A stretch of 29,399 nucleotides of DNA, counting the filler, from an uncultured virus (IMG/VR IMGVR_UViG_2124908004_000021) (lineage: Duplodnaviria > Heunggongvirae > Uroviricota > Caudoviricetes). It is 2 parts of one record of this genome, joined end to end, with 100 filler letters (N's around TTAATTAATTAA, not from the genome) between each part and the next. Parts side by side here need not be neighbours in the genome. Positions count along the whole stretch, not along the records: positions 10,941 to 29,399 come from IMGVR_UViG_2124908004_000021; 1 more part is not named here. One strand, given 5' to 3'. Shown here one piece after another: positions 3,001 through 29,399 of the stretch. Every line of letters starts with the position of its first letter. Within the stretch, counting starts at the first letter, position 1. The position numbers were made by a program, and so were the translations under genes. The notes beneath the pieces were generated by a model that was not told where the DNA came from, ran no database searches, and saw only the letters and a program-made list of their open reading frames with translations.

Positions 3001-3057
3001 TTTCAATAAAACCTGTTCAGCAAAAAATCTCGCTTGGTGTGGTGTATACAACTCCAT
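20..3057 (-). CDS. SNF2-family helicase/ATPase with C-terminal coiled coil (one gene spanning the N gap 1242-1499)
   Basis: LLADEVGLGKT, DEAH, LTATPLQN, EAAAEGINLQFCS; after the gap the frame reads RYGQKNDVVVINFLN into ORF 20..1219. A minus-strand GGAGG at 9-13 suggests another gene follows outside the window. Confidence 0.9.
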
Positions 3058-7856: not shown

Positions 7857-8354
7857 ATGCAAAGACACGTAAAAACAGGTAAAAAGAATCGTACCTCCTA
7901 CATCTACTACGACGAAAACGGTAACAAGCTCATGGAGCTCTTCCCCGGTGAAAACGGCGTTACCGAAGCAGATATCGAACGACTCCACGCAATGGACGAT
8001 GCCGAAGTCGATGAGCACCGCCGTTACGATTACCACGTTACCGAGCATCTGGACGCCACCCGCAACAAAGAGGGTGAGGACATAACTGACCATAACAAAC
8101 GCCTGGCCGATAATCGGACAAACCCGGAAGCTGTCCTCATTGCCCAGGAAGACGACGCAGCCTACGCGGAAACGCTGTTTAGGCTCACCGAAGCCATGAG
8201 CGGCCTGCAGCCCCAGCAGCGTGAGCTTTTCGAGAAGGTTTATATTCACCGCCGCAGCTATACTTCCATCGCTGCCGAGGAGGGTGTGACTGAGGCCGCG
8301 ATCCGGAATCGCCTGAAGAAGGTACACGAAAAGCTAAAAAAAATCCTTCGTTAA
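7857..8354 (+). CDS. Sigma-70 region 4-type HTH protein (phage/ICE sigma-like regulator)
   Basis: LQPQQRELFEKVYIHRRSYTSIAAEEGVTEAAIRNRLKK. Confidence 0.85.
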   Translation: MQRHVKTGKKNRTSYIYYDENGNKLMELFPGENGVTEADIERLHAMDDAEVDEHRRYDYHVTEHLDATRNKEGEDITDHNKRLADNRTNPEAVLIAQEDDAAYAETLFRLTEAMSGLQPQQRELFEKVYIHRRSYTSIAAEEGVTEAAIRNRLKKVHEKLKKILR

Positions 8355-10072: not shown

Positions 10073-10651
10073 ATGACAAATACCGCTAATCGCGTAAATC
10101 CCAACCACGGCAAGAATCCCACGAAGGTCATCACCGGCATCGTCCGCCTGTCCTATGCCAACGTGTGGGAGCCGAAGTCCATCAACGGCGGCGCCGAAAA
10201 GTATAGCGTCAGCCTGATCATTCCCAAGTCCGATACCAAGACCATCGCAGCTATCAACGCGGCCGTGGACGCCGCCATCGAGGAAGGCAGGGTCAAGCTC
10301 GGCGGAAAGGTGCCGAACAAGGCCGCCCTGAAGCTGCCCCTGCGTGACGGTGACATCGACCGCCCGGACGACGAAGCCTACGCCAATTCCTACTTCGTCA
10401 ATGCAAATTCCAGCACGGCGCCCCAGATTGTCAACCAGCAGGTAGAGCCGATCCTCGACCGCTCTGAAGTCTACTCCGGCGTGTATGCGCGGGTGTCCAT
10501 CAACTTCTACGCCTTCAACTCCAACGGGAATAAAGGCATCGCCTGCGGGCTCGGCAACATCCAGAAGGTGCGTGACGGTGAGCCGTTGGGCAGCCGCTCC
10601 AACGCAGCCGACGACTTCGCCACCGACGGTGACGACGACTTCCTGTCATGA
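10073..10651 (+). CDS. DUF2815-family phage ssDNA-binding protein
   Basis: RLSYANVWEP, KYSVSLIIPK, LRDGD, GLGNIQK, acidic tail DDDFLS; GGAGG RBS. Confidence 0.88.
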   Translation: MTNTANRVNPNHGKNPTKVITGIVRLSYANVWEPKSINGGAEKYSVSLIIPKSDTKTIAAINAAVDAAIEEGRVKLGGKVPNKAALKLPLRDGDIDRPDDEAYANSYFVNANSSTAPQIVNQQVEPILDRSEVYSGVYARVSINFYAFNSNGNKGIACGLGNIQKVRDGEPLGSRSNAADDFATDGDDDFLS

Positions 10652-10840
10652 GGACGCTCTTCATCGACATCGAGACATACAGCGGGACAGACCTCGGGAA
10701 ATCCGGGGTCTACCGCTATTCCGAAGAGCAGGACTTCGAGGTATTGCTCTTCGGATACAGCGTGGACGGAGGCGAGGTTCGTGTTATCGACCTCGCTTCC
10801 GGCGAAGCGCCGCCGCCCGATATCTTCGCCGCCCTGACGA
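10648..10840 (+). CDS. Phage family A DNA polymerase, N-terminal exonuclease fragment (scaffold end)
   Basis: MRTLFIDIETYS..DLGKSGVYRYS..DFEVLLFGYSVD (DxE ExoI motif); usual position after DUF2815. Confidence 0.8.
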
Positions 10841-10940
10841 NNNNNNNNNNNNNNNNNNNNNNNNNNNNNNNNNNNNNNNNNNNNTTAATTAATTAANNNN
10901 NNNNNNNNNNNNNNNNNNNNNNNNNNNNNNNNNNNNNNNN
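10841..10940. other. Artificial scaffold linker
   Basis: 44 N + TTAATTAATTAA (stops in all six frames) + 44 N = 100 nt. Confidence 0.95.
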
Positions 10941-11320
10941 TCTGGCAGAGAAACAGCGGTGGAAAGTTTGCGCCGCCATGTCTGGGAAGATTATCGGGAC
11001 AAGATGTACCGATTCACAAAAACTGATCTTGGTAAAGAGATATATGCCAGACGGAAAGAGACGATAGAACGAAGCTTTGCAGATTCAAAAGAGCTGCATG
11101 GTCTTCGCTATTGTCGGATGCGCGGACTGGAGAAGGTATCAGAACAATGCTTGTTGACAGCAGCAGTACAGAACATGAAGAAGATCGCACTGATACTGGA
11201 CCGTCGATTTCTACGTATATTACGAAGATGGATTACGGGTCTCATGATACCCGATGATTGTTATTGCTGAATTGACAAACGCCCCGTTTCATTGAAAACA
11301 GGGCGTTTGTCATCAAGCTG
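10941..11320 (+). mobile_element. 3' end of an IS1182-family element (transposase C-terminus ends at 11270)
   Basis: [29 protein letters not shown]...[10 protein letters not shown]; subterminal hairpin TGACAAACGCCC/GGGCGTTTGTCA. Confidence 0.8.
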
Positions 11321-13152: not shown

Positions 13153-15084
13153 ATGTCTTTACGTGATTTATCCTTAAAAGGTTGTTATGAGAGTTATGAG
13201 GATAATTTGCTTGAGGATTTTTACAATCCGATCTTAGCGCAGTCAATAAAATATAAAAGAATAGCCGGATTTTTTTCATCTAGTAGTATTGCGCTGGCTT
13301 CAAGAGGTTTATCTGGGCTTATAAATAATAGAGGGAGTATGCAATTAATTATTTCCCCCAAATTAAGTAAGGAAGATGTTGCGGTTATAAAAGAAGCTGA
13401 CATAAACCCAGATACATATCTCGAAGAAATTTTAATAAATCAGATTGAACAGGTATTGCTGAAGGATCAGTTTTTTGCTTTGGGTTGGTTATTGGCAAAT
13501 AAGATATTAAATATGAAAATTGTAGCTATTGTTAATAATGGTGCTTTTTTAAACGAGGAAGAAGTAAACGAGAGCAAGCTTTTACATCAAAAAATAGGTA
13601 TTCTGGAAGATAAAGAAGGTAACATTGTTTCCTTTAGTGGTTCGGTAAATGAAACCGCTTCTGGCTGGGTAAACAATCTAGAAGAATTCAAAGTATTTAA
13701 AGGATGGGAACCATCAATAAAAGAAACATATATCGATCCCGATATTAAAAAATTTAGTGAAATATGGGAAGGCAAAAGAGAGTATGTGTATGTTTTTAAA
13801 CCTAACAGATTAATTGAAAGACTAATTAAAATATGTCCAACTGATTATAGTTGGGATGTTATTAAAGCAAAGAAAATGATGAAAAATTTAGATTCCAATA
13901 AATGGAACCATCAATTAAAGGCGATGAAGAAATTCATTGAAGAGATGAGCGGCATACTTGAAATGGCAACGGGAACAGGGAAAACAAGAACTTGCTTGAT
14001 GATAATTGTTGAATTAATACAGTCTAACAAAATTGATACTATCATCATTAGTGTTCCTGGAAATGATTTATGTGAACAATGGGAAAATAATTTATTAGAA
14101 TATGAGATTAATAATTTTCCAATTCTAAGAAGTTATTCTGGTTTCAAAGAGCATCAATCATTTTGCTCGAGGCCGGAGAAGTCTATTTTAGTAATACAAC
14201 AAAAGACTCCTGAAAATTTGCTGCATGTTTTAAAACGCTTAACAACTGAACAAAAACAAAGAACTTTAATTGTATTCGATGAAGTTCATAACATGGGAAG
14301 TATTTCGAAAATTAAATCTTTATCGGGAGAAATAATTAAAATTGGCTATAGGCTTGGCCTTAGTGCAACGCCTGAGAGAAATAATGATGAGGCAGGCCAG
14401 TTGTTTATTGAGCAGGAGATTGGCAAGGTTATATTTTCATTTACTCTTGAAGACGCTATTAAAAAAGGAATTTTATGCGAGTTTGATTATGTTAAACTGC
14501 CTTATAAGCTAACCGAAGAAGAAAAACAGGCAATAAAAAAACTTAGAATAAGACTTGAAATAATACGGACTCAAGGAGGAACATTAGAAGAAGAGGAAAG
14601 AATTAAGATATTAATTGCAAAGATAAGAAAACTCGCAGAAAACAAGCTACCTGCATTCAAAGAATATTTGAAAAATAATTCTGTCGTTTTAGACAATTGC
14701 ATAGTTTTTGCTGAGGAAATGCAATATGCAAAAAGGATTCAAGAGATTATTTATAAATATATAAATGAGTTTTACCCCTATTATGACGATGCCAATCCCG
14801 CATATTTAACGAAATTTGCTTCTGGTGAGATTAAAACTTTAATTACATGTGAAAAAATCAATGAAGGCATTGATATTAAGTCTTGTAAAACAATTGTTTT
14901 ATTTTCATCTGATCGATTCAAAAAAACTACAATCCAAAGAATAGGGCGATGCCTAAGAACCAATCCTGAAGATCCTCTTAAAAGGGGTTTAGTCATTGAT
15001 TTCTGTGATGATGATAGCGAGACTGATAAAGAAAGAAGCGAATGGATATCAAAACTTGCTGAGGTGAAGAAAGAGAATGAGTGA
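13153..15084 (+). CDS. PLD(HKD)-like nuclease fused to an SF2 (ResIII-like) helicase
   Basis: LHQKIGILED...SGSVNET; MATGTGKT, DEVH, LSATPER, QRIGRCLR. Confidence 0.88.
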   Translation: MSLRDLSLKGCYESYEDNLLEDFYNPILAQSIKYKRIAGFFSSSSIALASRGLSGLINNRGSMQLIISPKLSKEDVAVIKEADINPDTYLEEILINQIEQVLLKDQFFALGWLLANKILNMKIVAIVNNGAFLNEEEVNESKLLHQKIGILEDKEGNIVSFSGSVNETASGWVNNLEEFKVFKGWEPSIKETYIDPDIKKFSEIWEGKREYVYVFKPNRLIERLIKICPTDYSWDVIKAKKMMKNLDSNKWNHQLKAMKKFIEEMSGILEMATGTGKTRTCLMIIVELIQSNKIDTIIISVPGNDLCEQWENNLLEYEINNFPILRSYSGFKEHQSFCSRPEKSILVIQQKTPENLLHVLKRLTTEQKQRTLIVFDEVHNMGSISKIKSLSGEIIKIGYRLGLSATPERNNDEAGQLFIEQEIGKVIFSFTLEDAIKKGILCEFDYVKLPYKLTEEEKQAIKKLRIRLEIIRTQGGTLEEEERIKILIAKIRKLAENKLPAFKEYLKNNSVVLDNCIVFAEEMQYAKRIQEIIYKYINEFYPYYDDANPAYLTKFASGEIKTLITCEKINEGIDIKSCKTIVLFSSDRFKKTTIQRIGRCLRTNPEDPLKRGLVIDFCDDDSETDKERSEWISKLAEVKKENE

Positions 15085-15286
15085 TATACAAGGATTTAAA
15101 GCTCAAATAGAAGCTCATATAAGTATTATTCTTGACAATTCCACTATACTTAACGCTCAAAAAGGTAAAGTTAAGAGAATAATTTTAAATGCTTATGACT
15201 CCAATTATGATGACAATGATTTAGATAATATTCTGAAAGGAGAATTATGTGGCGATGAAAATAAGGATGATGAAATTAACGATTAA
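15077..15286 (+). CDS. Small acidic protein coupled between helicase and ATPase
   Basis: 69 aa, GAGGTG upstream, overlaps both neighbours. Confidence 0.7.
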   Translation: MSDIQGFKAQIEAHISIILDNSTILNAQKGKVKRIILNAYDSNYDDNDLDNILKGELCGDENKDDEIND

Positions 15287-17135
15287 AGATATTCGCCACT
15301 TTGATGATATTACAATTGATCTTTCACGGGCAAATAAAACTTTTATTATGATGCCTAATGGTACGGGAAAAACAACAACCATTAATTTAATCAGAAATAT
15401 GTTAATAGGAGAAGCTATTTCAAAACAAGAGATACTTGATTTAAAACCTTTTGCAAGCCAAAAAGATGGGGGATCGATCGAGCTTCAATTTGGCATTGAT
15501 TCAAGGGTTTTTACGATCAAGCTATCTTTAGATTTCAAAAATCAAGAAAGTTCTTACGTTTATTATTCCATAGATGGTCACAGCACTACAAAACCAGAGA
15601 AATTGAATATATTTAGTGCGGATTTTACAAGGAAGTTTGTTTTCGATGGTGAATTATGTGTAGAATTTTTAAAAGAAGGTGGAGATTTAACTGCAGATAC
15701 AATAGAAAATTTATTTTTACTTGATCGCTTCAATACTTTCAATGACAAACTTGAGAGGGTAAAAGACGCATTGATCCGCATTAATACTTTAACCAGCGCT
15801 TCAAATCAGACGGGGGGGACAAAGCTTAACAATGAGCTTGAACAACTTAGAAATGATAAAAGTAAATTAGAAATTGAGAGAGCGCGTTTAACAGCTGGAA
15901 GAGACGATTTGGTATCAAAAGAGCATGAATTGGAGTTAAAAATATCTGAAATAAATAACAAATATCAAAATCAAAACAACCAAGTTGTTCAACATGAAAA
16001 TAATATAAATAATTTAGATATTGAAAGATCAAACTTATTAAAAGAAATAAGAGAGTGTACGCTTGCTATTCATTTATTGAGCGAGTCCTTATGGGTAAAA
16101 CAAAGGCCAGTAATAGATAATATGGCTAGTATGAAATTACCCAAAGAGATTTCAGAACAATTTTTTATTGATCTTATAGAAGAAGATACATGTGTTTGCG
16201 GCGAAAAAATGACAGACAATAAAAAATTATATATTAAAAATAATTACAAGTATTATTTGGATGAAAATGATATTGGGATTCTAAATCAAATAAGGAAATC
16301 AGCTAATGATCATACCTATAATAAACAACTTATAGATTTAATCGACAATTATAATAATAAATCAAGCATTAGAGACGTTGAAGAAACTAAACTACGGCGA
16401 CTTAAGAAGGAACTGGATCGCGAGCAATATGCAAAATTAACTAATTTCAGAGAAGAACTTAAAAAAATAAGAGATGATATTTCAAAAAAGAATTTTGAAA
16501 TTTCAGGAATTGAAAGTACTGATGTACATGCAATAAAAATTGGAAGGTTGACAAGCAAGAATAATCTTTTTGCTTGCGAGCGAAAAATCGAAGAGCTTGA
16601 AAAAACAATAGAAGCTTATCATTATAATAAAAGAGTAAAGAAAAATTATTATGTTCTAAAGGCCTTGATTGATGAGCTTAAGAAGCAAATGCTCTCTAGC
16701 ATAAAGAATATGTTAGAAGAAAATATAAACACGGAATTAAGTGATGTACATACATTTGATCAGCTTAAGATATTAATAGATGATAATATTAAAGTATATG
16801 GCAAATCTGGAGTAAGTACAGGGGAATCTTTATCCATTGCTTATATATTTATAAGCACTTTATTTAATAGTTCGTTTTATAATTTGCCACTCATTATTGA
16901 TTCGCCAGTAAACAGCCTTGATAACAATACTCGAAATTCTATTGCGAGGATATTGCCCGAATACTTTGAACAGCTTATATTATTTATAACTTCTTCAGAA
17001 AGGAACCATTTTGTCTCTGAATTTACGAAGCATTGTGATGAAAAAATATCATATTATACTATCTATAAGGAAGATATCAACTCAAAAATGGAAGTCAATG
17101 AAACTTATAACTTTTTTATGAATTACGATTCTTAA
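15249..17135 (+). CDS. SMC/Rad50-like ABC ATPase with CxC hook (DndD-like)
   Basis: Walker A PNGTGKTT, coiled coils, central TCVCG, signature STGE, Walker B LIIDSP. Confidence 0.88.
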   Translation: MAMKIRMMKLTIKDIRHFDDITIDLSRANKTFIMMPNGTGKTTTINLIRNMLIGEAISKQEILDLKPFASQKDGGSIELQFGIDSRVFTIKLSLDFKNQESSYVYYSIDGHSTTKPEKLNIFSADFTRKFVFDGELCVEFLKEGGDLTADTIENLFLLDRFNTFNDKLERVKDALIRINTLTSASNQTGGTKLNNELEQLRNDKSKLEIERARLTAGRDDLVSKEHELELKISEINNKYQNQNNQVVQHENNINNLDIERSNLLKEIRECTLAIHLLSESLWVKQRPVIDNMASMKLPKEISEQFFIDLIEEDTCVCGEKMTDNKKLYIKNNYKYYLDENDIGILNQIRKSANDHTYNKQLIDLIDNYNNKSSIRDVEETKLRRLKKELDREQYAKLTNFREELKKIRDDISKKNFEISGIESTDVHAIKIGRLTSKNNLFACERKIEELEKTIEAYHYNKRVKKNYYVLKALIDELKKQMLSSIKNMLEENINTELSDVHTFDQLKILIDDNIKVYGKSGVSTGESLSIAYIFISTLFNSSFYNLPLIIDSPVNSLDNNTRNSIARILPEYFEQLILFITSSERNHFVSEFTKHCDEKISYYTIYKEDINSKMEVNETYNFFMNYDS

Positions 17136-17152
17136 ATATAAGGAGGGGCAAC

Positions 17153-17623
17153 ATGGCATATAGACTAACAGATCAAGCAAAAAGATATTTTAGAAGCCTG
17201 CTTGAGAGTGGCGATAATAAACTTGATATGATGGAGGTTTATTATTATTGCTGTGTTGTAGGTCTGTTGAAAAAAGATAGGTCAAGCAATAATAACGGAG
17301 AAATTTTCTTGCAGACTATATATAGTAAATTTTCAGCTAATAATAGTTACAGATATCATGAACTTCTGTTATTACTATTAAATTCTGAGATAAAACATGT
17401 GGGAATTAATCCCTCAAATAGAACCGAATTAAAAAAACTATGTTCAGAGCTATTTATTAGCAACGATGACTTAAAGCTTACTGAATTAGGAATGAAGCGG
17501 TTAAATGACTACTGCGAATCTGGCTTCCAAGAATTATACAGAAGAGGAATTCACACTGTCAGTGCATTTGATTTTTTATATGATTGGCATCAAATTATTA
17601 AGAATTTAGAATATCAATATTAA
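17153..17623 (+). CDS. Hypothetical ATPase partner (DndE-like by position and size only)
   Basis: 156 aa, AAGGAGG RBS, directly after the ATPase. Confidence 0.6.
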   Translation: MAYRLTDQAKRYFRSLLESGDNKLDMMEVYYYCCVVGLLKKDRSSNNNGEIFLQTIYSKFSANNSYRYHELLLLLLNSEIKHVGINPSNRTELKKLCSELFISNDDLKLTELGMKRLNDYCESGFQELYRRGIHTVSAFDFLYDWHQIIKNLEYQY

Positions 17624-17634
17624 AGGATTAATAA

Positions 17635-18584
17635 ATGCAAAGGACAAATTGGGAACTAAGGCAATTGCAAAGCTTATCTCTTGAAGGGAAAATCTTCTTT
17701 TCACTTAGAAGAATAAAATCTTGGTATGATGAGAATCACGGTAATGTATATTGCAGCGTAAGTGGAAAAGATAGTATGGTATTGCTTAATTTAGTTCGAT
17801 CTGAGTATCCGGAAGTCCCAGCTGTAACCGTCAATACTGGGATGGAACATCCAGAAAACATAAAGCATTTAAAGACGATTAAAAATCTTATTTGGCTAAA
17901 ACCAGAGAAGAAAATTCATGAAGTGCTGAATGAGAGTGGTTATCCAATAATAAGCAAGATAAATAGTCGAAAACTTTATACTCTCCAAAATAGAACAGGG
18001 AAAAATGAGGCTACAAGAAATCTATATTTAACAGGCTATAATCAGAAAGGAGAGTTCCATAGCGCTAGTATGTTGCCTCCTAAGTACCACGACTTCATTG
18101 ATGCAGGATTCAAAATATCACATAAATGTTGTGATATTATGAAAAAAGACCCGTTGCATAAGTTCGAAAAAGAATTTAAGCTGAAAGCTTATGTAGCTAC
18201 AATGGCAGCAGATAGCGATGGAAGAAAAAAAATTATCTACAATATGGATGTACGATTAGAGGAAAAAATGGTTACTGTAGACCAATCTCAATTTGGACAG
18301 AGCAGGATATCCTAGAATATATTTATAAGAACAAAGTGCAAATATCGGGCGCTTATGGTGAAGTTGTTTTGAAAGATGGAATCTATCAAACTACCGGAGA
18401 GAGTAGGACAGGGTGCTTTTTTTGCTTGTTAGGAATTCAAAATGAAACGGAGCCAAATAGAATTCAGCGATTAAAAACCCAATATCCAAAATTATATGAT
18501 TATTGTCTAAGAGGCGATAACCCATCAAAAGAAGGATTAGCAATGAAGAAGGTATTGGAGAAATTAAATATACCATATGATTAA
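17635..18584 (+). CDS. PAPS-reductase-family PP-loop enzyme (frameshift at A8 18225-18232)
   Basis: SVSGKDS, NTGMEHPE, CCDIMKKDP; adding one A restores NYLQYGC...RPISIWTEQDILEYI...RTGCFFC (~316 aa). Confidence 0.85.
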
Positions 18585-18599
18585 AGATAGGAGATAATT

Positions 18600-19194
18600 A
18601 TGCCACCAAGCTGTGATTTCACCTATGGGATGCTTTGGAGACTCTTAAAGTTGTCCTTCCTGCTCTCTTCGCAATTATTGGGATTATTATTGGTAACATA
18701 TTTAATAATAAAGCCACTCGTAAAATGTTGCAATCACAGTTGCAATCCCAAAGAAAAAATCCCGAAATAGACGAGATTAGGAGTTCATTAAAAACTTTTA
18801 CCAGCCAATGATATTATTATGCAGTAAAAATAAGCAATTATATGATGTATTTAAAGGGCAAAGGAAAGACGAATTCAGAACTTTACTTTATTTGCTTAAT
18901 GGCGAAGAATTCGATAAGAACGATAAAGCGATTCTAGAAGAAATCATGCTAATTGATAGAAAAATAAACGATCTTATATTAAATAACAAGGACCTTGTGA
19001 AAGATGATGCATTAAAAACAGATTTAGCGAATGCATCTGCTCACTTTACCATAATTGATTTAGCCTATCAAAAAAAGATTGAAGGGGAGTGCGATAGATT
19101 TGTTGGATTTGTATATCCAAGAACATTACAAGAAAAATTAGAATTAGAAGTGAAAACGCTTCAAGAAAAATTAGAAATTTTGGAAAAAGAATGA
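18600..19194 (+). CDS. Hypothetical protein with N-terminal transmembrane helix (two probable frameshifts)
   Basis: AGGAG RBS; frame WDALETLKVVLPALFAIIGIIIGNIF...; adding one A at 18790-18794 joins ORF 18808..19194. Confidence 0.55.
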
Positions 19195-19823
19195 GATCAC
19201 AAGAAGTTTACTGGAATGAGCTTTATAATAAACTTGCTCTCGATCCCCCCCCTGCGATAATTGGCTTGAGCCTTATATCCCCATTTTGGAATCAGCGAAC
19301 ATTATTGTGGACTTAGGTGCGGGGGATGGTGCCGATACCATATACTTATGTAAAAAAGGGTATATATCCCGTTGCTTGTGATTTTGCTTTAGAGGCCCTC
19401 AAGAAAATAAATATACTTTGCCCAGAAGTAAAAACGAAATGTTTTGATATGTCTAAAGGCTTGCCGTTTGAGGATGGGAAAGTTGACATAGTAGTGGCTG
19501 ATTTAAGTTTACATTACTTCAATTGGAAAACTACAAAAAACATAGTTGGTAATATTAGTAGGGTTTTAGTTCCTAATGGAATATTGCTTGGCAGGGTTAA
19601 CTCAATAAATGATTTTAACTATGGTGCAATGACAGGTAGGAAGTTGGGGAAAAACTATTTTTATATTGATGGATGTAAAAAAAGGTTTTTTCAAAGAGAG
19701 GAGATTATTAATCTTTTTAAGGGGTGGAATATAGTTAATCTCTATGAAACGTCAACGGATAAATATAATGAGGAAAAGATGATATGGGAATTTGAAATTC
19801 ATAAGAGAGTATTAAAAAAGTAA
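19191..19823 (+). CDS. Class I SAM-dependent methyltransferase (frameshifts near 19245-19252 and 19358-19360)
   Basis: ATGA coupling; IVDLGAGDG motif I in alternate frame; ADLSLHYF; RVLVPNG. Confidence 0.8.
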
Positions 19824-19884
19824 ACATATAAAAGTTCGTTTCAATTTTATCTCCATTTTGGACAATTAATAGGGGAATTGATAT

Positions 19885-20968
19885 ATGATCAATAGACTTT
19901 TTTCAGTTAAGATAGTTCCAATTATTGACGGTGATAATAGAATAGCAGCGTGTAGAGGAGAGCAATGCAGACGGCTTCAAGATATGCTTGACAATGGCAT
20001 GCGAATATGTGGTATACAATTATTTCATTATGCGGTGATAAAGTATAATACAAGATACAATTATTATTTTCCGAAGTTTCTGAATGCTTTGTTTACAACG
20101 ATTTCAACTCTTTCGGATGAAGGTGACAATCTGTTTTTGAATGATCTAGAAGATTCAGAATTGAAAAGGGACTCGACTGAAGTAATCAGTATTGGATTAT
20201 CAAATAAGTTTATGTGTAATTGGTTTGGAATTAACGTAAACAGAATTGAAAAAATACCAGGGACAGGGAAAAGATGTGATTTCAGGTTTCCGTTCGACGG
20301 AGATACTATAATTTTTGAAGCTAAAGGTAGAACAAGTAGGAGCCAGATTAATAGTGCACTAACTGACTGTATTGAAAAAAAAAGTAACTATCAAGGGAAC
20401 TTTTTATATTCAATAATAGGGCATTTGCCAAGGAATGGATCGCCAGCAAGGCTATTGATTTATGATCCTCCAATTTATCGAAATGGCCTTAATTTTAATG
20501 AAAAATATTTAATTGCAAAGCATTATTGCAATGTTGCAGAATTATCAGGACTTGTGATCCTCGCAGACAGAATTCGTAGTAGAATAAAATACTATAAGAG
20601 GATTGGTAACTGGGATACAACGCCTCTTGAATTCAGCAATCTTGAAAAACTTGAATTCAGCAATCTTGAAAAAATCGGGATATCGATATCAATTAATAAT
20701 AACATATATTGGACAAGGAGAACCTTTCAGGATTATAGCTATAGAAATAAAAATATTATATTCAAATTGGTCTACACGAAAAATAATAAGGGCTTTAAAA
20801 GAATGGGATTTTGATGAATTGCTAAGATTTCAAACCGATGATATTGTTTTAAAAGATGATCGTTTAAGCATATTATCAGACGGAAGTTTATTCTACATTG
20901 GAGATCAGACATTACAAAAAAGTATGGGCTATAATGATATTACAACCCCAAACCCACCCAAGAAGTAG
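19885..20968 (+). CDS. Putative PD-(D/E)XK nuclease (C-terminal frameshifts)
   Basis: RCDFRFPFDGDTIIFEAKG; C-terminus continues KIIRALKEWDFDELL in ORF 20603..20968. Confidence 0.65.
20626..20673 (+). repeat. Perfect 24-bp tandem duplication (LEFSNLEK x2)
   Basis: CTTGAATTCAGCAATCTTGAAAAA repeated twice in frame. Confidence 0.9.
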
Positions 20969-21015
20969 AATGTGTTTTTCTTTTGGGACGTTGGTTCCAC
21001 TTCTCTCAGACGAAC
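20944..21015 (-). repeat. att-like repeat R1
   Basis: 20944-21000 matches 24395-24452 except for 3 substitutions and 1 T; GTTTTTCT-26 bp-AGACGAAC. Confidence 0.85.
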
Positions 21016-21105
21016 TTTACAACACTAATTGTAGTGAAAGATGTATGTTAATAATGCGCTGTTTTTCATAAACGTGAGACGAACCAGAACAACGCAATGC
21101 TTATA

Positions 21106-22514
21106 TTACCAGTAGTACCTTTTTTGTTTTTCTTTGCTTTCTATAAGCAAATCTTTATCTTCTTCATTCAGAATAGGATCGGCCTGTTTTCTAACTGGAT
21201 CAAGCCAATCAGCTTTATTTCGCCCCCATTGGATATAATCTTCATTAATATTTTCATGTTCAAGATAATCTAATAAGCGGTTAATATTGCATGATATTTC
21301 ATACTGCTTGGAGAGTTTGATTAAAGCTTGGGTTTGGGCAAACTCCTCGTCATGAATGGCCTCTTTCCTCCTTCGCTCCTCTTGACGGATTCTCTCCTGC
21401 TCAAGTTGCCTTTTATATTCTTGGCGTTCAAGTCTAATAGCTTGAGGTTGACTAAATATATATCGAAAGGCGTCTTTTACCATTAAATCTAATGAATATC
21501 TTTTGGTCTCTCTAAATTCTTTTGTGCAATCCGTATAATTATTTCCACGCACTATTTTTGTGCCCAACAATAATTGTTATAAAACCAGTTGGGAAGTATT
21601 CATAACGATCGCCCCAAGTATATTGGCGTTCATTTTCTGGTTTCTCTTTGCGGGTCCTTTTTCTTTCAATACANNNNNNNNNNNNNNNNNNNNNNNNNNN
21701 NNNNNNNNNNNNNNNNNNNNNNNNNNNNNNNNNNNNNNNNNNNNNNNNNNNNNNNNNNNNNNNNNNNNNNNNNNNNNNNNNNNNNNNNNNNNNNNNNNNN
21801 NNNNNNNNNNNNNNNNNNNNNNNNNNNNNNNNNNNNNNNNNNNNNNNNNNNNNNNNNNNNNNNNNNNNNNNNNNNNNNNNNNNNNNNNNNNNNNNNNNNN
21901 NTTTCAATAATTATGTTTGATTGATCTTGAGTTAAACTGACATTTCCCCCTGCTGACTCGACAGCTTTTAATAGGGCATCTAAAAATAAATATGCTTTTT
22001 GCAGAGTTTCTTCGGATACTGAGCCAGTATTTAATACAGTTTTTTCTCGACTGAGGTGAACTCCATACATATCGTTCCGATAATATTTACTCCGTTTTGC
22101 TTCCTGTATTGCGGCTTTATGCGCTACAATAGTGGGGTGAGGGTTAGATAAAGTTTTGTTTAATTTTAATGAATCATGGATTCTATATAACGCTTTCTGT
22201 TTTTCATTATCATAGAACTGAAAGGGTTTATCTTGGATGAGATCGCCGCTGGCCTTTGTTTTTTCTGTTGATGTTATATCTTGAAAGAAGATTCTTTGAT
22301 TTCCATCAAATGCGGGGAGGGCATCTGGTTTAGGATTTTTACCAGCATAAAAATTCCCCCAGTACTTATTTGAAGGCAACGGTATGTTATAAAGTTTACA
22401 CTTTTTTCGAATCGCTTGATCCGAGACCCCATAGCGTTTAGCAACTTTTGAAACTGCTTCTTGCCATATTTCATTATATAGATTATCACGTGTTGTTTCC
22501 ATAATAGGCTCCAT
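21106..22514 (-). CDS. Hypothetical protein with N-terminal HTH-like region (spans gap 21674-21901; frameshift near 21550)
   Basis: TRDNLYNEIWQEAVSKVAKRYGVSDQAIRKKCKLYNIPLP; C-terminal coiled coil and WGRNKADWLDP. Confidence 0.7.
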
Positions 22515-22566
22515 TTAAAAAAATATGAATTGATTATATCATATGTACTCTTATAATGTCAGAGTT

Positions 22567-22636
22567 ACCCAAACCTACCCATGAAGTAGAATATGTTTTT
22601 CTTTTGAGCTTTTGAGTTCGTCTAGTTTAGACAAAC
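22567..22636 (-). repeat. att-like repeat R2 (diverged)
   Basis: ACCCAAACCTACCCATGAAGTAGAATATGTTTTTCTTTTG; GTTTTTCT-26 bp-AGACAAAC. Confidence 0.75.
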
Positions 22637-24218
22637 TGATATATACAAATAGCGCTGGAAAAAGAAATGTTCGGGGGAGGTGAGGTGGCTTCATGGCATC
22701 CCTGTCTTTATTTTTAGTAAGATAAAAAGGCTCATAATGATTTGAATAATGAATGAGACGTTCTTCTATAATGTTAGGATTCATATCAATGCATTTAAAT
22801 ACATGAAATTGTAACAGAATACACAGCCTCTTAATGTACTGCTCTAGTATCATAAGGTCATTAATACCTAGGGCAAGGGGGTACTTTTTCATGTTATCTC
22901 TATGTGTAAAATAGTTTCGTGTTTGTACAATTATCTGTAGGATCTTGTTTTTGTCTTTTGTATTTGGGTGTCCGAATAATTTATTCATCAATGCATCAGG
23001 TGTCAATCGAAAGATTTCTTTTAATCGCTTATGAAGACTCTTCTCATCTTCATAATTTATTTTTTCTATAAATGCAGCTCGATTTTCTTCACTTACATTC
23101 TCGTTGATAAAAGAAATTATTAATTCTTTCTCTTTTGATGAATCTGATACCGATGGTGTTTCTTTATCCTCTATAAAGAATCTATGAAAAGTTTCAAGGC
23201 TTCGTACAGTGTTCAGGAACCTTGTATATTGGTAGGCTGGGAGATATAAGTCATTGATATAAGGGTTAACAATTTCAGACAGTAAGTTTTGCTGAGAAAA
23301 CCATTTGTTAAATATAACTTCAATATTATCCTGTATATGTTTTCTAAAAAATAAGACTGAATCCGAATAAGGGGAAATTTTTTGAGGCGTATTAATCTCA
23401 CCAACTTGTCTAAAAAATAATCGGCATGAATTTTTGATTTTGTATTCTTTTCCATCATGTGTTGTCTCTTGCTTATTAGGAAGATTGAAATCAATGTATA
23501 AGAAATACAAAGGACTGCCTATAAGCATTGTGAGTAAACGTTTGATTTTTTGAAGATTATCCCTCTGGTGCTTATAAGAAAAACAGGATTTATCTATGAG
23601 TGACAACCTATAGAATCTCTTTATACTAATGTTTGTTGTTTCTTCTGAAAAAAAGTCATTGGAATGATCTATGGTATATCCTATCTCTTCAACAATAGAA
23701 ATGTTATCTGGATTGAGCTTAATGCTTTTTTTCTGAGATAGAGCCTTTTCAAGATCAACCGACCATTCAATTCTACCACTATCCCTATATTCGCGGCTTT
23801 CAATAATATGTATGTTCATCCAAGCATCGAGATATGTGAACAAAAATGTTATGTCTTCAACGATCACGGCATCCTCGTTTTCAATTAATTGTGATCCTGC
23901 ATAAAACTGATCAACTAAATACGTAACAGTGCTGAATCCAGGGATACCCGTCTGTGTCCTAATAATGAAGCAACCATATAACGCAAGCCATTCACCATGA
24001 TTAGAAAAGCCATAAATCACTTGCTTGTAAGAATTTCTTTTTGAAGCGTATTTCTCGCCTGTTTCTTCTTCTAAGGTTCCAATCAGTTCCAAAGTTATTC
24101 TCTGAGAAGTATATTTTAGTATTCCTTGAATCCCGTCTCTATCCATGTTTTGCCATGGAAAATACCAGATGCCTTTTATCTCAAACGAAGCACTCATTAG
24201 TTGTTCTCTGGCTTTCAT
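22575..24218 (-). CDS. apeA: ApeA-like HEPN RNase (anti-phage family)
   Basis: N-terminal KGIWYFP..GILKY..ITLELIG region; FLNTVRSLETFHR; HEPN RNYFTH (RxxxxH). The last ~45 aa run into R2 and may be read-through. Confidence 0.8.
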   Translation of the reverse strand: MKAREQLMSASFEIKGIWYFPWQNMDRDGIQGILKYTSQRITLELIGTLEEETGEKYASKRNSYKQVIYGFSNHGEWLALYGCFIIRTQTGIPGFSTVTYLVDQFYAGSQLIENEDAVIVEDITFLFTYLDAWMNIHIIESREYRDSGRIEWSVDLEKALSQKKSIKLNPDNISIVEEIGYTIDHSNDFFSEETTNISIKRFYRLSLIDKSCFSYKHQRDNLQKIKRLLTMLIGSPLYFLYIDFNLPNKQETTHDGKEYKIKNSCRLFFRQVGEINTPQKISPYSDSVLFFRKHIQDNIEVIFNKWFSQQNLLSEIVNPYINDLYLPAYQYTRFLNTVRSLETFHRFFIEDKETPSVSDSSKEKELIISFINENVSEENRAAFIEKINYEDEKSLHKRLKEIFRLTPDALMNKLFGHPNTKDKNKILQIIVQTRNYFTHRDNMKKYPLALGINDLMILEQYIKRLCILLQFHVFKCIDMNPNIIEERLIHYSNHYEPFYLTKNKDRDAMKPPHLPRTFLFPALFVYISLSKLDELKSSKEKHILLHG

Positions 24219-24379
24219 GAAATCATCCCCCAGTTATTGTTTTTAAGATCGTGATTCCACTCCTTATACGAATTAGGCTTCGCATTATAAAGTGGATAAT
24301 AATATTAAATTATATCATATTTTATAACGCTTCAAATTCGAATCTACTTAATATGGAATTTTGCATATAAAGTTACTAC

Positions 24380-24985
24380 TTACAAAGCTAACGTAACCCC
24401 AAACCCACCCAAGAAGTAGAAGATGTTTTTTCTTTTGGGACATTGGTTCCACCAACTGATCCTTAGAAAAACACTCGGGCTCTAAGGATAACGATGATTG
24501 GCCATCTTGTATGTTGTACAGGATGGTCATTTTATCTTCATCGAGAATGATTTCCCGTACAAAAATATTGATCAGGGACTTGCGAAACCTGAAGTTATTA
24601 ACATCTCCGTTCTTGAATCTCCCCATGAAGTTTTTAACTTCTGCAAATGTGGGCTGTGGGTATCTTATACTCTCTTGGATTAATTGCTTTTTGAGCTCTG
24701 CCAATTCAGCTTGATTCTTAACGATTGAATCCGTGATATATCAGCCGCCTTACCCCTGCTCCAAAGCTTTTATTAAATTCTGGATTGACTTTTCACGGTC
24801 TGTAATTGTACGTTGTAGATGTTTGATCGTAGGCGTATTACTCTCTTTTTTGCACAGGTCTACTACTTCTTTAGCGATAATATCAATATTTTCATCGGTA
24901 AGCAGCTTCTTTGTTTCTGTGACAACAATATCTTCAATATAGTCCTTTGATATGGGTTTCCTTTCGCAGTCCTTTTGGCCTCTTT
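24380..24985 (-). pseudogene. C-terminal remnant of a large serine recombinase
   Basis: Minus strand reads KDCERKPISKDYIEDIVVTETKK...LINIFVREIILDEDKMTILYN, aligning by eye with CDKKTITKDYIEKLVVSETKR...VIDIFVNSVYIYDDKLVLMYN in 28803..29399; catalytic domain missing. Confidence 0.85.
24395..24474 (-). repeat. att-like repeat R3 (symmetric) inside the recombinase 3' end
   Basis: GTTTTTTCT-31 bp-AGAAAAAC with inner TTGGT-tcc-ACCAA dyad. Confidence 0.85.
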
Positions 24986-25091
24986 AAACCCGAAAAGAAA
25001 AAAAGAGCTTCAAAACCTATCAGAAGATTTCCATATTACACTATTGAAGAAGCGATTAAAATACCGAAATTAATAAAAGAGAATAATGGCG

Positions 25092-26151
25092 TGTAGGACT
25101 ACAATACATATTGGACATTGAACCTTGAAAATAAAAGATGCAGGGAAGGACTCATGGGGTATTGTTAAGATGAAGAACAAAACACTACCGAAAGGAGCCC
25201 AAACCTGCATGAATAACATAACACAAGACATGAAGTATCGGCAATCCCTCGTTTGCTTTGCGCTCAAGTACGGCGTTTCCCGCGCCCGCCGCAAGTATAA
25301 CAAAGCCCGTTCCACGATCTATTTTTGGATTTCAAGGTACAATGGCACAATCGAGTCATTGGCCTGCCGGTCACGAAGACCATATTATCATCCTGCGCAG
25401 CATACCGAGGACGAACTCTCGCTTCTGCGCCGCATGCGGCGCAGAAATCCTGACCTTGGCCTGTGCGAGCTGTGGTGGCGTTTGCGGCAAAGGGGCTATA
25501 CCCGTACCCTTGTCAGCATGTACCGCGTCTTAAAGCGCCTGGGGTTGCAGCCGGCACCTGCTCCCAAGCCCAAATACATCCCTAAGCCCTATGAACAGAT
25601 GCTTTATCCCGGCCAACGCGTACAAATAGACGTTAAATACGTGCCTTGCGTCTGTCTGGTCGGGGATGCAAAGGGTAAACGCTTCTACCAGTACACCGCC
25701 ATTGATGAGTATTCGCGTCTGCGGTATCTGGAAGCTTTTGAGGAGTTGAGCACCTATTCATCGGCCACGTTCCTCAAAAACGCTGTCAAGCACTTCAGGT
25801 TCCCCATAGAGTGCGTACAGACCGATAATGGCTTTGAGTTTACCAACCGTTTCTCATCTGCCAAGCGCGACCTACCCACACTGTTTGAAGCCACTGCTGC
25901 CGGCATGGGCATCCGCCACAAACTCATCCGCCCTTATACGCCGCGCCACAACGGCAAGGTCGAGCGTAGCCATCGTGAGGATCAGAAGCGCTTTTACTCC
26001 AAGCACACCTTTTACTCTTTTTCAGACTTCAAGCTGCAGCTTGAAGCCTATCGATACCGTACCAACAAGATTCCCATGCGCCCGCTCGGTTGGCGATCGC
26101 CAACCGAATACCTGCACAACTACACTGTCCAATATGTTTGACAAACCTAAA
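25092..26151 (+). mobile_element. IS481-family insertion sequence, 1060 bp
   Basis: 26-bp imperfect IRs TGTAGG...ACATATTGGACA / TGTCCAATATGT...CCTAAA; flanking 25-bp direct repeats at 25067-25091 and 26152-26176. Confidence 0.9.
25209..26141 (+). CDS. IS481-family DDE (rve-type) transposase
   Basis: QIDVKYV, QTDNGFEF, TPRHNGKVERSHR; AAAGGAG RBS. Confidence 0.92.
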   Translation: MNNITQDMKYRQSLVCFALKYGVSRARRKYNKARSTIYFWISRYNGTIESLACRSRRPYYHPAQHTEDELSLLRRMRRRNPDLGLCELWWRLRQRGYTRTLVSMYRVLKRLGLQPAPAPKPKYIPKPYEQMLYPGQRVQIDVKYVPCVCLVGDAKGKRFYQYTAIDEYSRLRYLEAFEELSTYSSATFLKNAVKHFRFPIECVQTDNGFEFTNRFSSAKRDLPTLFEATAAGMGIRHKLIRPYTPRHNGKVERSHREDQKRFYSKHTFYSFSDFKLQLEAYRYRTNKIPMRPLGWRSPTEYLHNYTVQYV

Positions 26152-27150
26152 AAATTAATAAAAGAGAATAATGGCGGAAACCCTTGGGATACCGAGCAAC
26201 ATGCTATTGCATTAGATGCTAAAAAAAGTGGTAATATTTTCTATTATATGACCGCTGCTTCTAGAGATTATGGCTTTACTATTGGGACAAGAGATACTCC
26301 TACTGTAGCTTTAGCAGATTTAGGTCGTAAATATATTTATGCTCGATATGTATAAGAAATGGAAGAATGCCTAAAAACAGCTTTATTTAGTATTGATATA
26401 TTCAAGCGAGTATATGAATATTACAAAGACGGGGAACCAACAGATAATACTTTCTTTAAAAATGCGTTAACAACGACTTTTAATCTAGATGAAAGTTTCC
26501 ATGATGATTTTATTAGTATTTATCGTAAAAATGTCAAATATGTATTTAAAATTGTTCCCCAAAAGCCTCAAACACTTAACACCTTATCCATAAACAAGGC
26601 ACAAATTTCAAAGCCTACAACTGATAGAAAATTATTTGTGATAATGCCTTTTACAGAAAAATCAAAAGAAGTCCCTAAAGGTTTTTTTAATGAAGTATTA
26701 AAACATTTAATTAAGCCTAGCGCCGAAAAGGCTGGATATATTGCTGAAACAGCAGATCGTAATGGTAGTGATATTATTCAATCTACGATCGTTCAAGCTA
26801 TTAGTAATTCAAGTATTATTTTAGCTGATTTAACTGAACATAATCCTAATGTTCTATTTGAATTAGGTATTGCAATTGCCTTAAAAAAACCGGTTGTTCT
26901 TATTAAGACGGAAAATACAGGACAAATATTCGATATTGATAATACCATTAGGGTCTTTTCATATAATCAGAATTTATGGCCATCTACTTTAGAAAAGGAT
27001 GTTCCTAATCTGGCAACAAGAATTGGCGCTGTAGTCAATAACATAGGTAAAGAAAAATCTTATTTTGATACATTTATGGGTAATTAAAAATAATGTACAG
27101 TTAAGAAAAAATTCATTTCTCTTTTTGAGATCGCCGAGGAGGAATCAAGC

Positions 27151-27375
27151 ATGTTTGAAACAAATGAATTAATTAAAAAGTTTACCAGTTTAATCAACGA
27201 ATTTTCTAGAAATCAAATAAATTATTTAAATGAGTTAGAAAAAAACAGAAATGAGTTAAGCGATTGTAAAAGCCAAAGTGCGCAACATGCTAACATGAAT
27301 AGAGCAGCGATGATAATTAACTCCAGAAGCTCCGAGATGAGAAACTATAATCAGTGCTTTTTATCCTATGCCTGA
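27151..27375 (+). CDS. Small hypothetical protein
   Basis: GAGGAGG RBS, 74 aa, followed by hairpin AGAGATTGA/TCAATCTCT. Confidence 0.5.
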   Translation: MFETNELIKKFTSLINEFSRNQINYLNELEKNRNELSDCKSQSAQHANMNRAAMIINSRSSEMRNYNQCFLSYA

Positions 27376-27458
27376 AACAGAGAGATTGATGATTTAACTC
27401 AATCTCTATATTGCTAGAAGCCCGCTAAAAGCTTTCAACATATTTATAACTAAGATTT

Positions 27459-27506
27459 ATTATAAACAAATTATGAGTTGATTTTAACTCGTTATTTGTT
27501 TATAAT
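27459..27506 (+). promoter_or_regulatory. Palindromic promoter/operator upstream of xre-recombinase
   Basis: 13-bp perfect arms ATTATAAACAAAT/ATTTGTTTATAAT; contains TTGATT-17 bp-TATAAT. Confidence 0.65.
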
Positions 27507-27535
27507 TTATTTATACTGAGGTTAGGAGAAATAAC

Positions 27536-27904
27536 ATGACATCCATCGGGAATAGATTAAAGGAATTACGAACGGGTATGGGGCTATCACAGTCGGCGCT
27601 TGCCAAGATAGTAGGCACAACGCAATCCAGTATTAATCGATATGAGCAGGAGGATTCACAAGCGCCTTACAAAGTGCTTTTGTGGTATGCTGACTATTTT
27701 GATGTCTCGATGGATTATATCTTTGGGCGCACAGACCAGCCACAGGGTAAGCTCTACGATTACCAGCCGAAAAAAATAAAAGAGAAAATGCTCAACACAC
27801 AGGATTGGAACGAGTTTGTGGAGGCTTGCTTTGAGCCGGGCTCACCTATGAATCTAAAACTGAAAGAAATGCTTGTTAAAATGGCTTCGGAGGAACCCAA
27901 ATGA
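27536..27904 (+). CDS. XRE-family HTH regulator
   Basis: IGNRLKELRTGMGLSQSALAKIVGTTQSSINRYE; ATGA coupling to recombinase. Confidence 0.9.
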   Translation: MTSIGNRLKELRTGMGLSQSALAKIVGTTQSSINRYEQEDSQAPYKVLLWYADYFDVSMDYIFGRTDQPQGKLYDYQPKKIKEKMLNTQDWNEFVEACFEPGSPMNLKLKEMLVKMASEEPK

Positions 27905-29399
27905 ATGGTGTTATCTATGCCCGGTATTCTTCTGATAATCAGCGTGAAAAATCGATAGAAGGGCAGGTACGCGAATGTATGGAATATGCAGACCGTTACG
28001 GCCTTGCGATCATCGGCACATATATTGACCGCGCTTTCTCCGCAAAGACGGATGACAGGCCGGAATTCCAGCGCATGATAAAGGACAGTGCCAAGCGGAT
28101 GTTTGAGGTGATACTGGTATGGAAGCTGGATCGCTTTGCCCGTAGCCGCACAGACTCCGCTATGAACAAGTTTATATTGAAAAAGAATGGCGTCAAGGTC
28201 ATATCCGCCAAGGAAAACATCTCAGACGGGCCAGAGGGCATCATTCTGGAGGCCATGCTGGAAGGGTATGCGGAATACTATTCCGCTGAGCTTTCTGAGA
28301 AGATATTGCGTGGCCTGACCGAGAACGCCCTAAAGGGAAAGTATAACGGCGGCGGTCTGCCGCTGGGATATACGACGGACAGTGAACAGCATTTCCAGAT
28401 AGACCCGATGACCGCCTCGATTGTACAAGAAGTGTTCACCCGGTATGCCGACGGAGAAACGGTTGCTGCAATTACTTCTTCATTAAAAGCACGTGGCCTG
28501 GTATCCAGCAGGGGCGCGGCTTTCAACAAGAACAGCTTACACGATATGCTAAAGAACCGGAAGTATATTGGCGAGTACAGATACAAGGACATCGTTCACA
28601 CTGATATGATACCACCTATCATTTCAAAGGAGTTGTTTACATTGGTACAGGAACGGCTGGAGAAGAACAAGAAAGCACCTGCTAAGAAAAAGGCGATTGT
28701 AGAATACCTTTTGACCACCAAACTGTTCTGCGGTAAATGCGGCGCGTTTATGGTAGGTGAAAGCGGGACAAGTAAGACCGGGAGGATATATCATTATTAC
28801 AAATGCGCCATAGCAAACGGGAAAGAGCTTGCGATAAGAAGACAATTACGAAAGACTATATTGAAAAGCTGGTCGTGTCGGAAACCAAACGCATCGTGTT
28901 TCAGGATGATATGATCGACCGGCTGGCAGACGCCATAGTGGAATTGCAGAAGAAAGAGAATACGAGATTGCCCCTGTTGCAGCAACAGCTCAAGGAAACG
29001 GAAAAAGGCATCGAGAATATGCTCAACGCCATACAGCAGGGAATTATCACTTCTTCGACTAAACAGCGTCTGGATGAATTGGAAGGCCGCAAGGCGGAAC
29101 TTGAAGTAGGCATTGCACAGGAGCAGATGGAAAAGCCATTGCTGACTAAAGAACAGATCGTATTCTGGATCAGCCGGTTCAAGGACGGGGATATTGACGA
29201 TGTGAAATATCAGCGCAGCGTAATTGACATATTCGTGAATTCGGTCTACATCTACGACGATAAGCTGGTGCTGATGTACAACTACAAGGATGGTGCCAAA
29301 ACCGTGGCTTTGGAGGATATTCAGAGTTCGGATTTAGTGGGTTGCACTCCACCAAGATTAAACGAAAAACCACCGTATATGGTGGTTTTTCTGCTTTGA
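27901..29399 (+). CDS. Large serine recombinase (frameshift near 28809)
   Basis: YARYSSDNQ, WKLDRFAR, zinc ribbon CGKCG...YYKC..C; adding one base joins ORF 28803..29399 (~499 aa). Confidence 0.92.
29347..29391 (+). terminator. Putative att junction (CTCCACCA) followed by a terminator hairpin
   Basis: CTCCACCA at 29347-29354; GAAAAACCACC/GGTGGTTTTTC at 29364-29391. Confidence 0.6.

Follow-up and report, generated by a model that had tools for sequence, protein, structure and literature searches.

What are the three repeats that lie beside a broken recombinase gene in the DNA of an uncultured tailed virus (Caudoviricetes), and how did the small genes between them come to stand there? The stretch considered here, called the window in the following, comprises 29,399 nucleotides (IMGVR_UViG_2124908004_000021; two parts of one record, joined through 100 filler letters). 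A first-pass annotation had proposed that the repeats, R1, R2 and R3, form an integron-like platform on which a large serine recombinase accumulates or excises defence cassettes. The reading that we favour, with a probability of roughly 0.42, is that R1-R3 are attachment (att) sites of a large serine recombinase family of the ssrA type, and that they mark the joints of a small, now inactive tandem stack of the kind known from the staphylococcal cassette chromosome (SCC). The locus is best filed as a single decayed miniature variant of serine-recombinase tandem accretion. The repeats and their spacing, the point at which the family's sequence ends and the targets that it uses in nature are observations; what type each half-site is, in which order the units came in and whether they ever moved are inferences. 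The features on which the argument turns are the following.

24348..25010, minus strand: LSR1, what remains of a large serine recombinase (LSR), namely its C-terminal part, truncated at the 5' end and with a broken frame.
24396..24473, minus strand: R3, an attP-like site (direct-repeat match 24398-24467).
24473-24465, minus strand: gene-end half-site of LSR1 within R3, TGTTTTTCT.
24424-24433, plus strand: mirror half-site of R3, TGTTTTTTCT, followed by the conserved extension of ca 27 nt at 24396-24423.
24448-24450: approximate centre of the R3 dyad, TTGGT-TCC-ACCAA.
22568..22637, minus strand: R2, a hybrid-type site, with outer motifs AGTTTGTCT (22637-22629, minus) and TGTTTTTCT (22594-22602, plus), a gap of 26 nt between them, and its extension at 22568-22593.
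20944..21016, minus strand: R1, a hybrid-type site (direct-repeat match 20947-21016), with outer motifs AGTTCGTCT (21016-21008, minus) and TGTTTTTCT (20973-20981, plus), a gap of 26 nt, and its extension at 20944-20972, which covers the last seven codons and the stop of gene X.

That the window holds three repeats in the same orientation was confirmed by repeat detection, by alignment and by a pattern search. A 24-mer from the conserved repeat end, CCCAAACCCACCCAAGAAGTAGAA, has three matches in the window at no more than three mismatches, and none in 100 shuffles. Aligned on the minus strand, R1-R3 have about 53 nt in common (...GGAACCAAyGTCCCAAAAGAAAAACAyATTCTACTTCTTGGGTGGGTTTGGGG). R2 is the most diverged of the three copies, with an inner part unlike that of R1 and R3, while R1 and R3 differ over the conserved part (53 nt plus) by only two substitutions and one indel. 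The minus-strand order is also as first described, namely LSR1 fragment, R3, ApeA/HEPN gene, R2, a gene of unknown function and R1; behind R1 follows the convergent gene X. With three related sites of one orientation that bound tandem units, the array resembles an SCC-like island, in which some units have no recombinase.

Two of the earlier statements about the repeats have to be adjusted. They were said to lie exactly between genes, which is broadly correct; R3, however, overlaps the last codons of the recombinase open reading frame (ORF) and R1 the last seven codons of gene X, and R2 lies between genes only after a 1-nt difference in a T-run is allowed for (see below). The identity of R1 and R3 was said to stop at the centre of the R3 dyad. 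It does end near the centre: the similarity spans CCCCAAACC to TTGGTTCCAC and is then lost, although the actual point is 2-3 nt beyond the middle of TTGGT-TCC-ACCAA.

A structured-RNA identity of the repeats was considered and rejected. There is no tRNA or transfer-messenger RNA (tmRNA) in the window, no Rfam match in 19500-29399 and no fold shared by the three copies (fold z-scores from -2.07 to +0.68), and R1-R3 are therefore neither RNA genes nor attC-like hairpins. As a separate observation, R2 contains the family motif twice at 22615-22637, inverted and 5 nt apart (AGTTTGTCT-AAACT-AGACGAACT, the second copy at 22615-22623). The pair gives a 10-bp hairpin (z = -2.07) and is too compact for an att site.

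We now turn our attention to the recombinase. The earlier description of LSR1 as truncated is correct: with the relative P0001 as tblastn query, only residues 297-485, that is, the ca 190 C-terminal ones, match the window, at 25010-24447. LSR1 has no catalytic domain and does not combine the resolvase catalytic, recombinase and zinc-ribbon domains; its frame is broken near 24750, and the C-terminal ORF occupies 24348-24704. Longer relatives of the fragment were 3 of 73 candidates at E <= 0.001 (P0001-P0003), all of them with PF00239, PF07508 and PF13408.

The ends of these proteins locate the edge of the family. P0001 and P0002 have the same residues as the window through SLSLEPECFSKDQLVE, and directly behind it all three differ. 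P0003, with 58% identity to the fragment in the window, has ...MVE at the corresponding position and diverges there as well. The relatives' DNA likewise has TTGGTGGA in common and differs after it. In the window, the LSR1 ORF continues after ...KDQLVE into R3 and the flank, with a tail that begins PMSQKKKHLLLLGWVWG; judged from this comparison, the tail past LVE is read-through into flanking DNA. The conserved sequence of the family ends at the R3 dyad, as at the boundary of an element.

A genome contig collection supplied a wider set, in which 220 relatives passed confirmation and 79 loci were retained. The ORF of the closest group continues into ...AGGVEPxSEN..., a sequence that corresponds to the tmRNA 3' end read in antisense. 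ARAGORN, applied to 16 loci, places a tmRNA abutting the recombinase end in seven and a tRNA-Pro in one, and makes no call in eight; three of these eight (L010, L015 and L016) have an ssrA-like flank by eye, and in L015 a full tmRNA could be placed where the recombinase ends. Since the recombinases end at ssrA or tRNA 3' ends, this is an ssrA/tRNA-targeting family whose att site overlaps the last codons of its own gene. An unoccupied ssrA site, which would give the natural second attB arm, was sought in the genomes of L008 and L012, where only partial tmRNA matches were obtained. In two other genomes, G001 (with L015) and G002 (with L004), the 3' end of the tmRNA (model positions 346-363) recurs elsewhere at several isolated places, in copies of 17-18 nt. 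Two of these copies lie 141 nt apart in G001:C27, and they may all be far-end junctions or the ends of other elements.

The geometry of the sites is what connects R1 and R2 to this family. The spacing of the outer motifs given previously, 31 bp in R3 and 26 bp in both R1 and R2, is exact on re-measurement: 31 nt separate the outer 9-mers of R3 (TGTTTTTCT ... AGAAAAAACA), and 26 nt those of R1 (AGTTCGTCT ... AGAAAAACA) and of R2 (AGTTTGTCT ... AGAAAAACA). For the LI integrase, the account of half-sites in PMC3783163 puts the zinc-ribbon domain motif at bp 16-24 in attP half-sites and at bp 11-19 in attB half-sites. When the relatives are brought into a common register, their gene-end motif is at 23-15 and the tmRNA/tRNA T-arm motif GGTTCRAYT at 18-10, with a spacing of 26 in 11/11 natural junctions. 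The outer motif is shifted by 5 bp between attP-type and attB-type half-sites in the window (31 versus 26 and 26), and the natural junctions have the 26 of R1 and R2. In R1 and R2 the left-arm motif occupies the closer register, while in R3 the motif of either arm occupies the farther register.

By the LI integrase rule, R3 with its two far arms looks attP-like, and R1 and R2, with a near left and a far right arm, look attL/attR-like. The family itself suggests the same assignment: R1 and R2 are spaced like the natural hybrid junctions of its integrated elements, and R3 exceeds them by 5 bp. The earlier reading of R1 and R2 as hybrids is supported in this respect, although the labels depend on the model used.

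The motif AGTTYGTCT has three matches in the 29.4-kb window, all in R1 and R2, compared to 0.33 expected. It is the motif of the relatives' gene-end half-site (AGTTCGTCT in L010-L013, AGTTTGTCT in L014 and L019), where it lies 5 bp further out. Between R1 and R2 the left-arm 9-mer is alike at 8/9 positions and the 9 nt inside it at 2/9, as counted from the alignment, a pattern that looks like constraint on a binding motif rather than uniform decay. The arms can also be compared directly: the R3 left arm matches the R1 right arm, in mirrored register, at 16/23 positions, a value reached by 3 of the 56,652 23-mers of the window, which are the R3 arm itself, the R1 arm and one unrelated site. Together, the family junction at the R3 dyad, the AGTTYGTCT motif and the 26/31 spacing support the original view of the repeats as serine-recombinase att sites.

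The same motif raises the question of whether R1 and R2 could be the last remains of decayed whole recombinase genes, of which only the 3' ends were kept, an outcome that had been named as fatal to the first interpretation. In related recombinase genes, AGTTYGTCT is indeed the stretch of Ser-Ser codons close to the 3' end, and at one locus of another subfamily (L066) the final 51 nt of the recombinase gene occur a second time, 5.6 kb downstream. However, a tblastn search with P0001 finds no recombinase-like coding sequence beside R1 or R2 even at E <= 10, and what lies upstream of R2 is the 3' region of ApeA. In all 15 gene ends of relatives that were tabulated, the motif is moreover 5 bp farther from the centre than in R1 and R2, and the intervening bases are unrelated. 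With no coding remnant and a different motif register, we consider this origin very improbable.

A further possibility is that the repeat is an intergenic module of ca 55-75 nt, copied by homologous recombination or duplication within a defence island, and that the LSR1 element integrated into, or was fused to, one of the copies. The conserved part, 53 nt plus, exceeds a serine-integrase half-site, R1 and R3 are nearly identical over it, and the surroundings are a low-GC (30-33%) mosaic with an insertion sequence (IS), transposase fragments and several broken genes; by ungapped score, the R3 dyad is also unexceptional. It would on the other hand be hard to see why the junction point of the family falls exactly where the likeness of R1 and R3 stops, and why the left arms of R1 and R2, which have diverged elsewhere, kept precisely the family's gene-end motif. 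The spacings of 26 and 31 also fit natural hybrids and the +5 rule. Such copying is, in our judgement, quite unlikely.

Returning to the tandem stack, its arrangement could be written on the minus strand as LSR1-[P'-o-P]-ApeA-[b2-o-P]-unknown-[b1-o-P]-gene X. R3 would be the terminal half-site of the recombinase gene joined to a mirror-image half-site, while R1 and R2 would keep the mirror half-site and its 27-nt extension and have in their other arm AGTTYGTCT 5 bp closer. Each unit would thus have a P arm, the extension and a promoter at its start, and a b arm at its end. The units, which have no recombinase of their own, would have been inserted serially, as b-o-P circles, at the site beside the recombinase. 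This would require a relaxed pairing like that of the Ccr recombinases, between an attP-type and an attL-type site. The array would by now be a fossil, with LSR1 lacking its catalytic half, a second recombinase (LSR2) and gene X frameshifted, and an IS beside LSR1.

The components of the two units and the gene behind them are listed here.

22575..24218, minus strand: gene of unit 2, with ApeA_NTD1 and HEPN_Apea (PADLOC PDC-S58, E 1.2e-63).
24317-24309: extended -10 box TGATATAAT, ahead of the ApeA gene.
21106..22514, minus strand: unit 1, gene(s) of unknown function, an N-terminal ORF that continues into a run of N's and, behind it, a 154-aa ORF.
22562-22533: strong promoter-like site of unit 1, CTGACA-18-TATAAT with an upstream TG, directly after R2 (11/12 positions).
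19885..20968, plus strand: gene X, convergent, with its stop inside the R1 extension.

Unit 2, from R3 to R2, has a length of ca 1.83 kb, and unit 1, from R2 to R1, of ca 1.62 kb; the site arms lie 70-90 nt past the unit stop codons. For unit 2 this depends on where the ApeA gene ends, since as written in the window its ORF reads through R2. It has 547 aa there and 503 aa in a metagenome contig, L002, that is 99.96% identical, and the additional 44 codons are caused by one T fewer in the T-run of the window (22710-22716) than in that of L002. Judged from L002, the natural stop is near 22707. Of 13 ApeA homologues found, eight were aligned, and all eight end at about residue 495-510. Because L002 and these homologues end earlier, R2 is placed ca 70 nt past the natural ApeA stop. 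The T-run difference is either a sequencing error or a recent frameshift.

The gene of unit 1 has no family in Pfam, PADLOC or NCBIfam and only unnamed clusters in the ESM Atlas; a 282-aa ORF gives one weak PHROGs match (HNH endonuclease, E 1.5e-4). Gene X, judging from its homology, is a real gene: a homologue of 50% identity, P0007, covers the two frames into which a frameshift near 20790 divides it. At 20626-20673 it also contains a perfect in-frame 24-nt tandem duplication, which adds eight codons (LEFSNLEK twice).

It is important to point out that several observations weigh against the tandem stack. The serine integrases treated in the site-pairing part of PMC3783163 combine attP with attB or attL with attR, and not attP with attL. 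The resemblance of the arms is also less singular than it may appear, as shuffled windows yield 0-2 (about one) 16/23 matches somewhere, and the ungapped dyad score of R3, 13/23, is equalled at 88-99 other positions of the AT-rich window; R3 carries an extra T that breaks the dyad register. In L008, L012 and L013 the divergence begins directly behind TTG(G), at a point 3-4 nt short of the R3 dyad centre on its upstream side; for this reason the crossover point is not fixed and the P-type and B-type labels are model-dependent. The aligned centre is GAA in R2, compared to GGA in R1 and R3 (the dyad centre), and the conserved extension of ca 27 nt reaches beyond a normal half-site. Only one of the two units has a recognised defence gene. 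Finally, the array layout is found in none of the relatives' 79 recombinase loci, and the two units are the only ones, seen in this sequence only.

The pairing difficulty disappears if three larger, related recombinase-bearing elements were nested, each having entered by attP x attB into an attB-like site behind the first cargo gene of the previous one. R1 and R2 would then be true attL-type junctions with the element bodies towards lower coordinates, and R3 would be an unused attP. This requires nothing but the established pairing rules of serine integrases, as laid down in that part of PMC3783163, and R1 and R2 do have the spacing of natural integrated junctions. The long cargo/replication block past R1 (Pbe defence genes, DUF2800, Enc34 ssDNA-binding protein) could be element body, and since the contig has a length of ca 479.5 kb, the matching far junctions could lie outside the window. 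However, nesting presupposes that in two successive elements an attB-like site happened to lie 70-90 nt past the first gene. The other 21 kb of the window contain no unoccupied copy of the motif, and left of the Pbe block there is no recombinase remnant. The similarity of R2 and R3 to R1 also ends at one point (+/-3 nt), which agrees better with a defined unit end than with unrelated element bodies. We thus hold nested integrations to be unlikely, while giving them weight.

A more ambitious version of the serial insertion is the one closest to the first-pass annotation. In it, an ssrA-type recombinase would have a miniature gene-capture platform, where the attP-type site in its own 3' end takes promoter-bearing single-gene defence cassettes by attP x attL, the circles carrying an attL-type hybrid (a B-type arm and a P arm with the 27-nt extension). 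The attP-type x attL-type pairing that such a platform needs is excluded for the serine integrases studied, according to the same account (PMC3783163). A platform that accumulates or excises defence cassettes is also not borne out by the locus, which has two units, one defence gene and no catalytic domain, and of which no variant or empty site was found in the collections searched. We regard this version as rather improbable.

Further copies of the sites or of the array were searched for in several collections. The pattern scans were of the exact type, which diverged copies of the repeat escape. With this limit, the 24-mer has no match in the viral or the genome contig collections. In metagenome contigs it is found at three loci, two of which (L002 and L003) are the window's own sequence, 99.96-100% identical and in the same order. 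The third, L001, is an unrelated contig that has only the 24-mer CCCAAACCaACCCAgGAAGTAGAA at 8001-8024 in common with the window; it lies there ca 60 nt behind an Mrr-type restriction gene, with a short hairpin ahead and no recombinase within 9 kb, and may be a chance match or a distant copy of the extension. Looser patterns gave 17 + 1 matches in viral contigs, none with flank similarity or a recombinase.

BLAST with R1 found nothing in 399 scored genomes of a class-level sample around the relative G001 (two more were unscored), and a context search in viral contigs for relatives of ApeA, gene X and the unknown gene gave none. The LSR1 fragment gave one weak, unannotated phage match and no plasmid match by tblastn. 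Megablast with window positions 1-25000 gave no plasmid match, and short matches of 73-76% to three phage records, located in replication genes. No unit-wise variant, empty site or second array was found, the other copies, L002 and L003, having the same order. Arrays of the kind looked for behind homologous recombinases are absent from all of the 79 relatives' loci.

Repeats of the gene-end region, of one kind or another, do occur in 15 of these loci, and in six of the 15 (L023, L043, L046, L053, L055 and L066) there are direct repeats of at least 50 nt downstream, in distant subfamilies and with other parts repeated. These repeats, of 50-95 nt, lie beside or inside the recombinase gene end and recur 0.7-7 kb downstream, and they may be tandem or relic att sites. 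In L066, for example, the last 51 nt of the recombinase gene (9444-9494) are found again at 15003-15053. L017 has P-type motifs on both arms and no array.

How does the locus compare with systems already described? SCC integrates at rlmH (orfX). The closest likeness is to SCC and SCCmec, moved by CcrAB or CcrC, where, in the composite islands treated in PMC11470126, repeated large-serine-recombinase att sites split the region into tandem units and Ccr recombinases move tandem recombinase-less defence cassettes. Here too, some units are recombinase-less, with anti-phage genes, and would move in trans via the neighbouring recombinase. The units of the window are, however, of one gene and 1.6-1.8 kb, compared to 17-26 kb for those of RP62a given in that source (PMC11470126). 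Its recombinase is dead and, judged from the targets of its relatives, belongs to an ssrA-targeting clade and probably not to Ccr; the array lies inside a decayed mobile element and not at rlmH; and the sites are one attP-type site and two hybrids of the same polarity.

In Dehalococcoides, islands at ssrA with a CcrB-like serine recombinase (DsiB) include tandem islands with and without integration modules, which the portion of PMC3146451 concerned reads as accretion and cis-mobilisable elements. The relatives of LSR1 also integrate at the ssrA 3' end. The window differs in having no tmRNA or tRNA, in a repeat that is not a copy of the ssrA 3' end, and in far smaller units. Its array does not start at ssrA, with whose end it has only a short TGGTGGA-like core in common.

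With phage-type serine integrases, as modelled for A118/LI in PMC3783163, the sites have in common that they are quasi-symmetric, with an outer motif 5 bp closer in one kind of half-site, and that, in the systems that this source describes, attP overlaps or abuts the integrase gene. They differ in that the model (PMC3783163) forbids attP-type x attL-type pairing and in that the conserved arm here is ca 27 nt longer than a half-site. The centre and the crossover are here model-dependent.

The integron, to which the locus was first compared, has the same general plan of a recombinase gene followed by mostly single-gene units of one orientation, each closed by a related site. The recombinase is, however, a serine and not an IntI tyrosine recombinase (only serine recombinase domains were found). 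An attC-like fold is absent from the sites, and each unit has a promoter of its own, so that SCC is the proper analogue and the integron is not; of the two comparisons made earlier, the one with tandem SCC att sites can be kept and the one with attI/attC cannot.

In staphylococci, tandem accretion at serine-recombinase sites is known to spread genes for resistance and defence, and in Dehalococcoides genes for dehalogenases; in either case large islands at a chromosomal gene form the units. Should elements of the gut Clostridia type indeed stack one-gene units at the recombinase's own attP, the shuffling of anti-phage genes would be much finer-grained, and a serine integrase family with relaxed site pairing would be of interest for genome engineering. 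A gene-capture platform, if true, would be the serine-recombinase counterpart of the integron. What the locus mainly offers is a set of defined test substrates, one site with 31-bp and two with 26-bp spacing, together with the natural ssrA target in relatives.

Finally, the remaining mobile-element features on the right-hand side of the window are these.

27901..29399, plus strand: LSR2, a second large serine recombinase, full length with all three domains; the window ends at its stop.
25067-26176: IS481-type IS, with its transposase ORF at 25125-26141 (NCBIfam IS481, 198 bits, under the 224-bit cut-off).

LSR2 is frameshifted near 28820-28850, and its 3' end has the 8-nt core TCCACCAA in common with R3. 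Its tail reads through a terminator-like hairpin and ends in ...GCACTCCACCAAG, which contains TCCACCAA. GCTCCACCA is the end of those relatives that have ...APP or ...CST tails; one such element, in L043, is downstream of, and co-directional with, a tmRNA gene. From these ends and this layout, two recombinase subfamilies seem to use the ssrA 3' end from opposite directions. The IS481-type element beside LSR1 splits a small plus-strand ORF and not LSR1 itself. Its inverted ends are near 25106-25120 and 26123-26137, and it has an unusually long direct repeat of 25 nt on both sides; the split ORF precedes a TIR-like / nucleoside deoxyribosyltransferase-like gene (26359-27087).

The units belong to a low-GC block (30-33%) within a phage-like element of 45-48% GC, which contains DUF2800 and Enc34-type ssDNA-binding genes, a truncated polymerase, PbeA/PbeC and a split DrmD. 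The window as a whole is a decayed, defence-rich mobile element, and since the record of the window's gene X protein gives a contig of 479,504 bases, the element is integrated in a large replicon. The PbeA/PbeC (Dnd-related) defence set is at 13153-19200, where PAPS-reductase-like ORFs are in pieces. A polymerase fragment and transposase fragments lie at ca 10650-11270, and at the left end (1-3057) a DrmD-like helicase is split into two ORFs.

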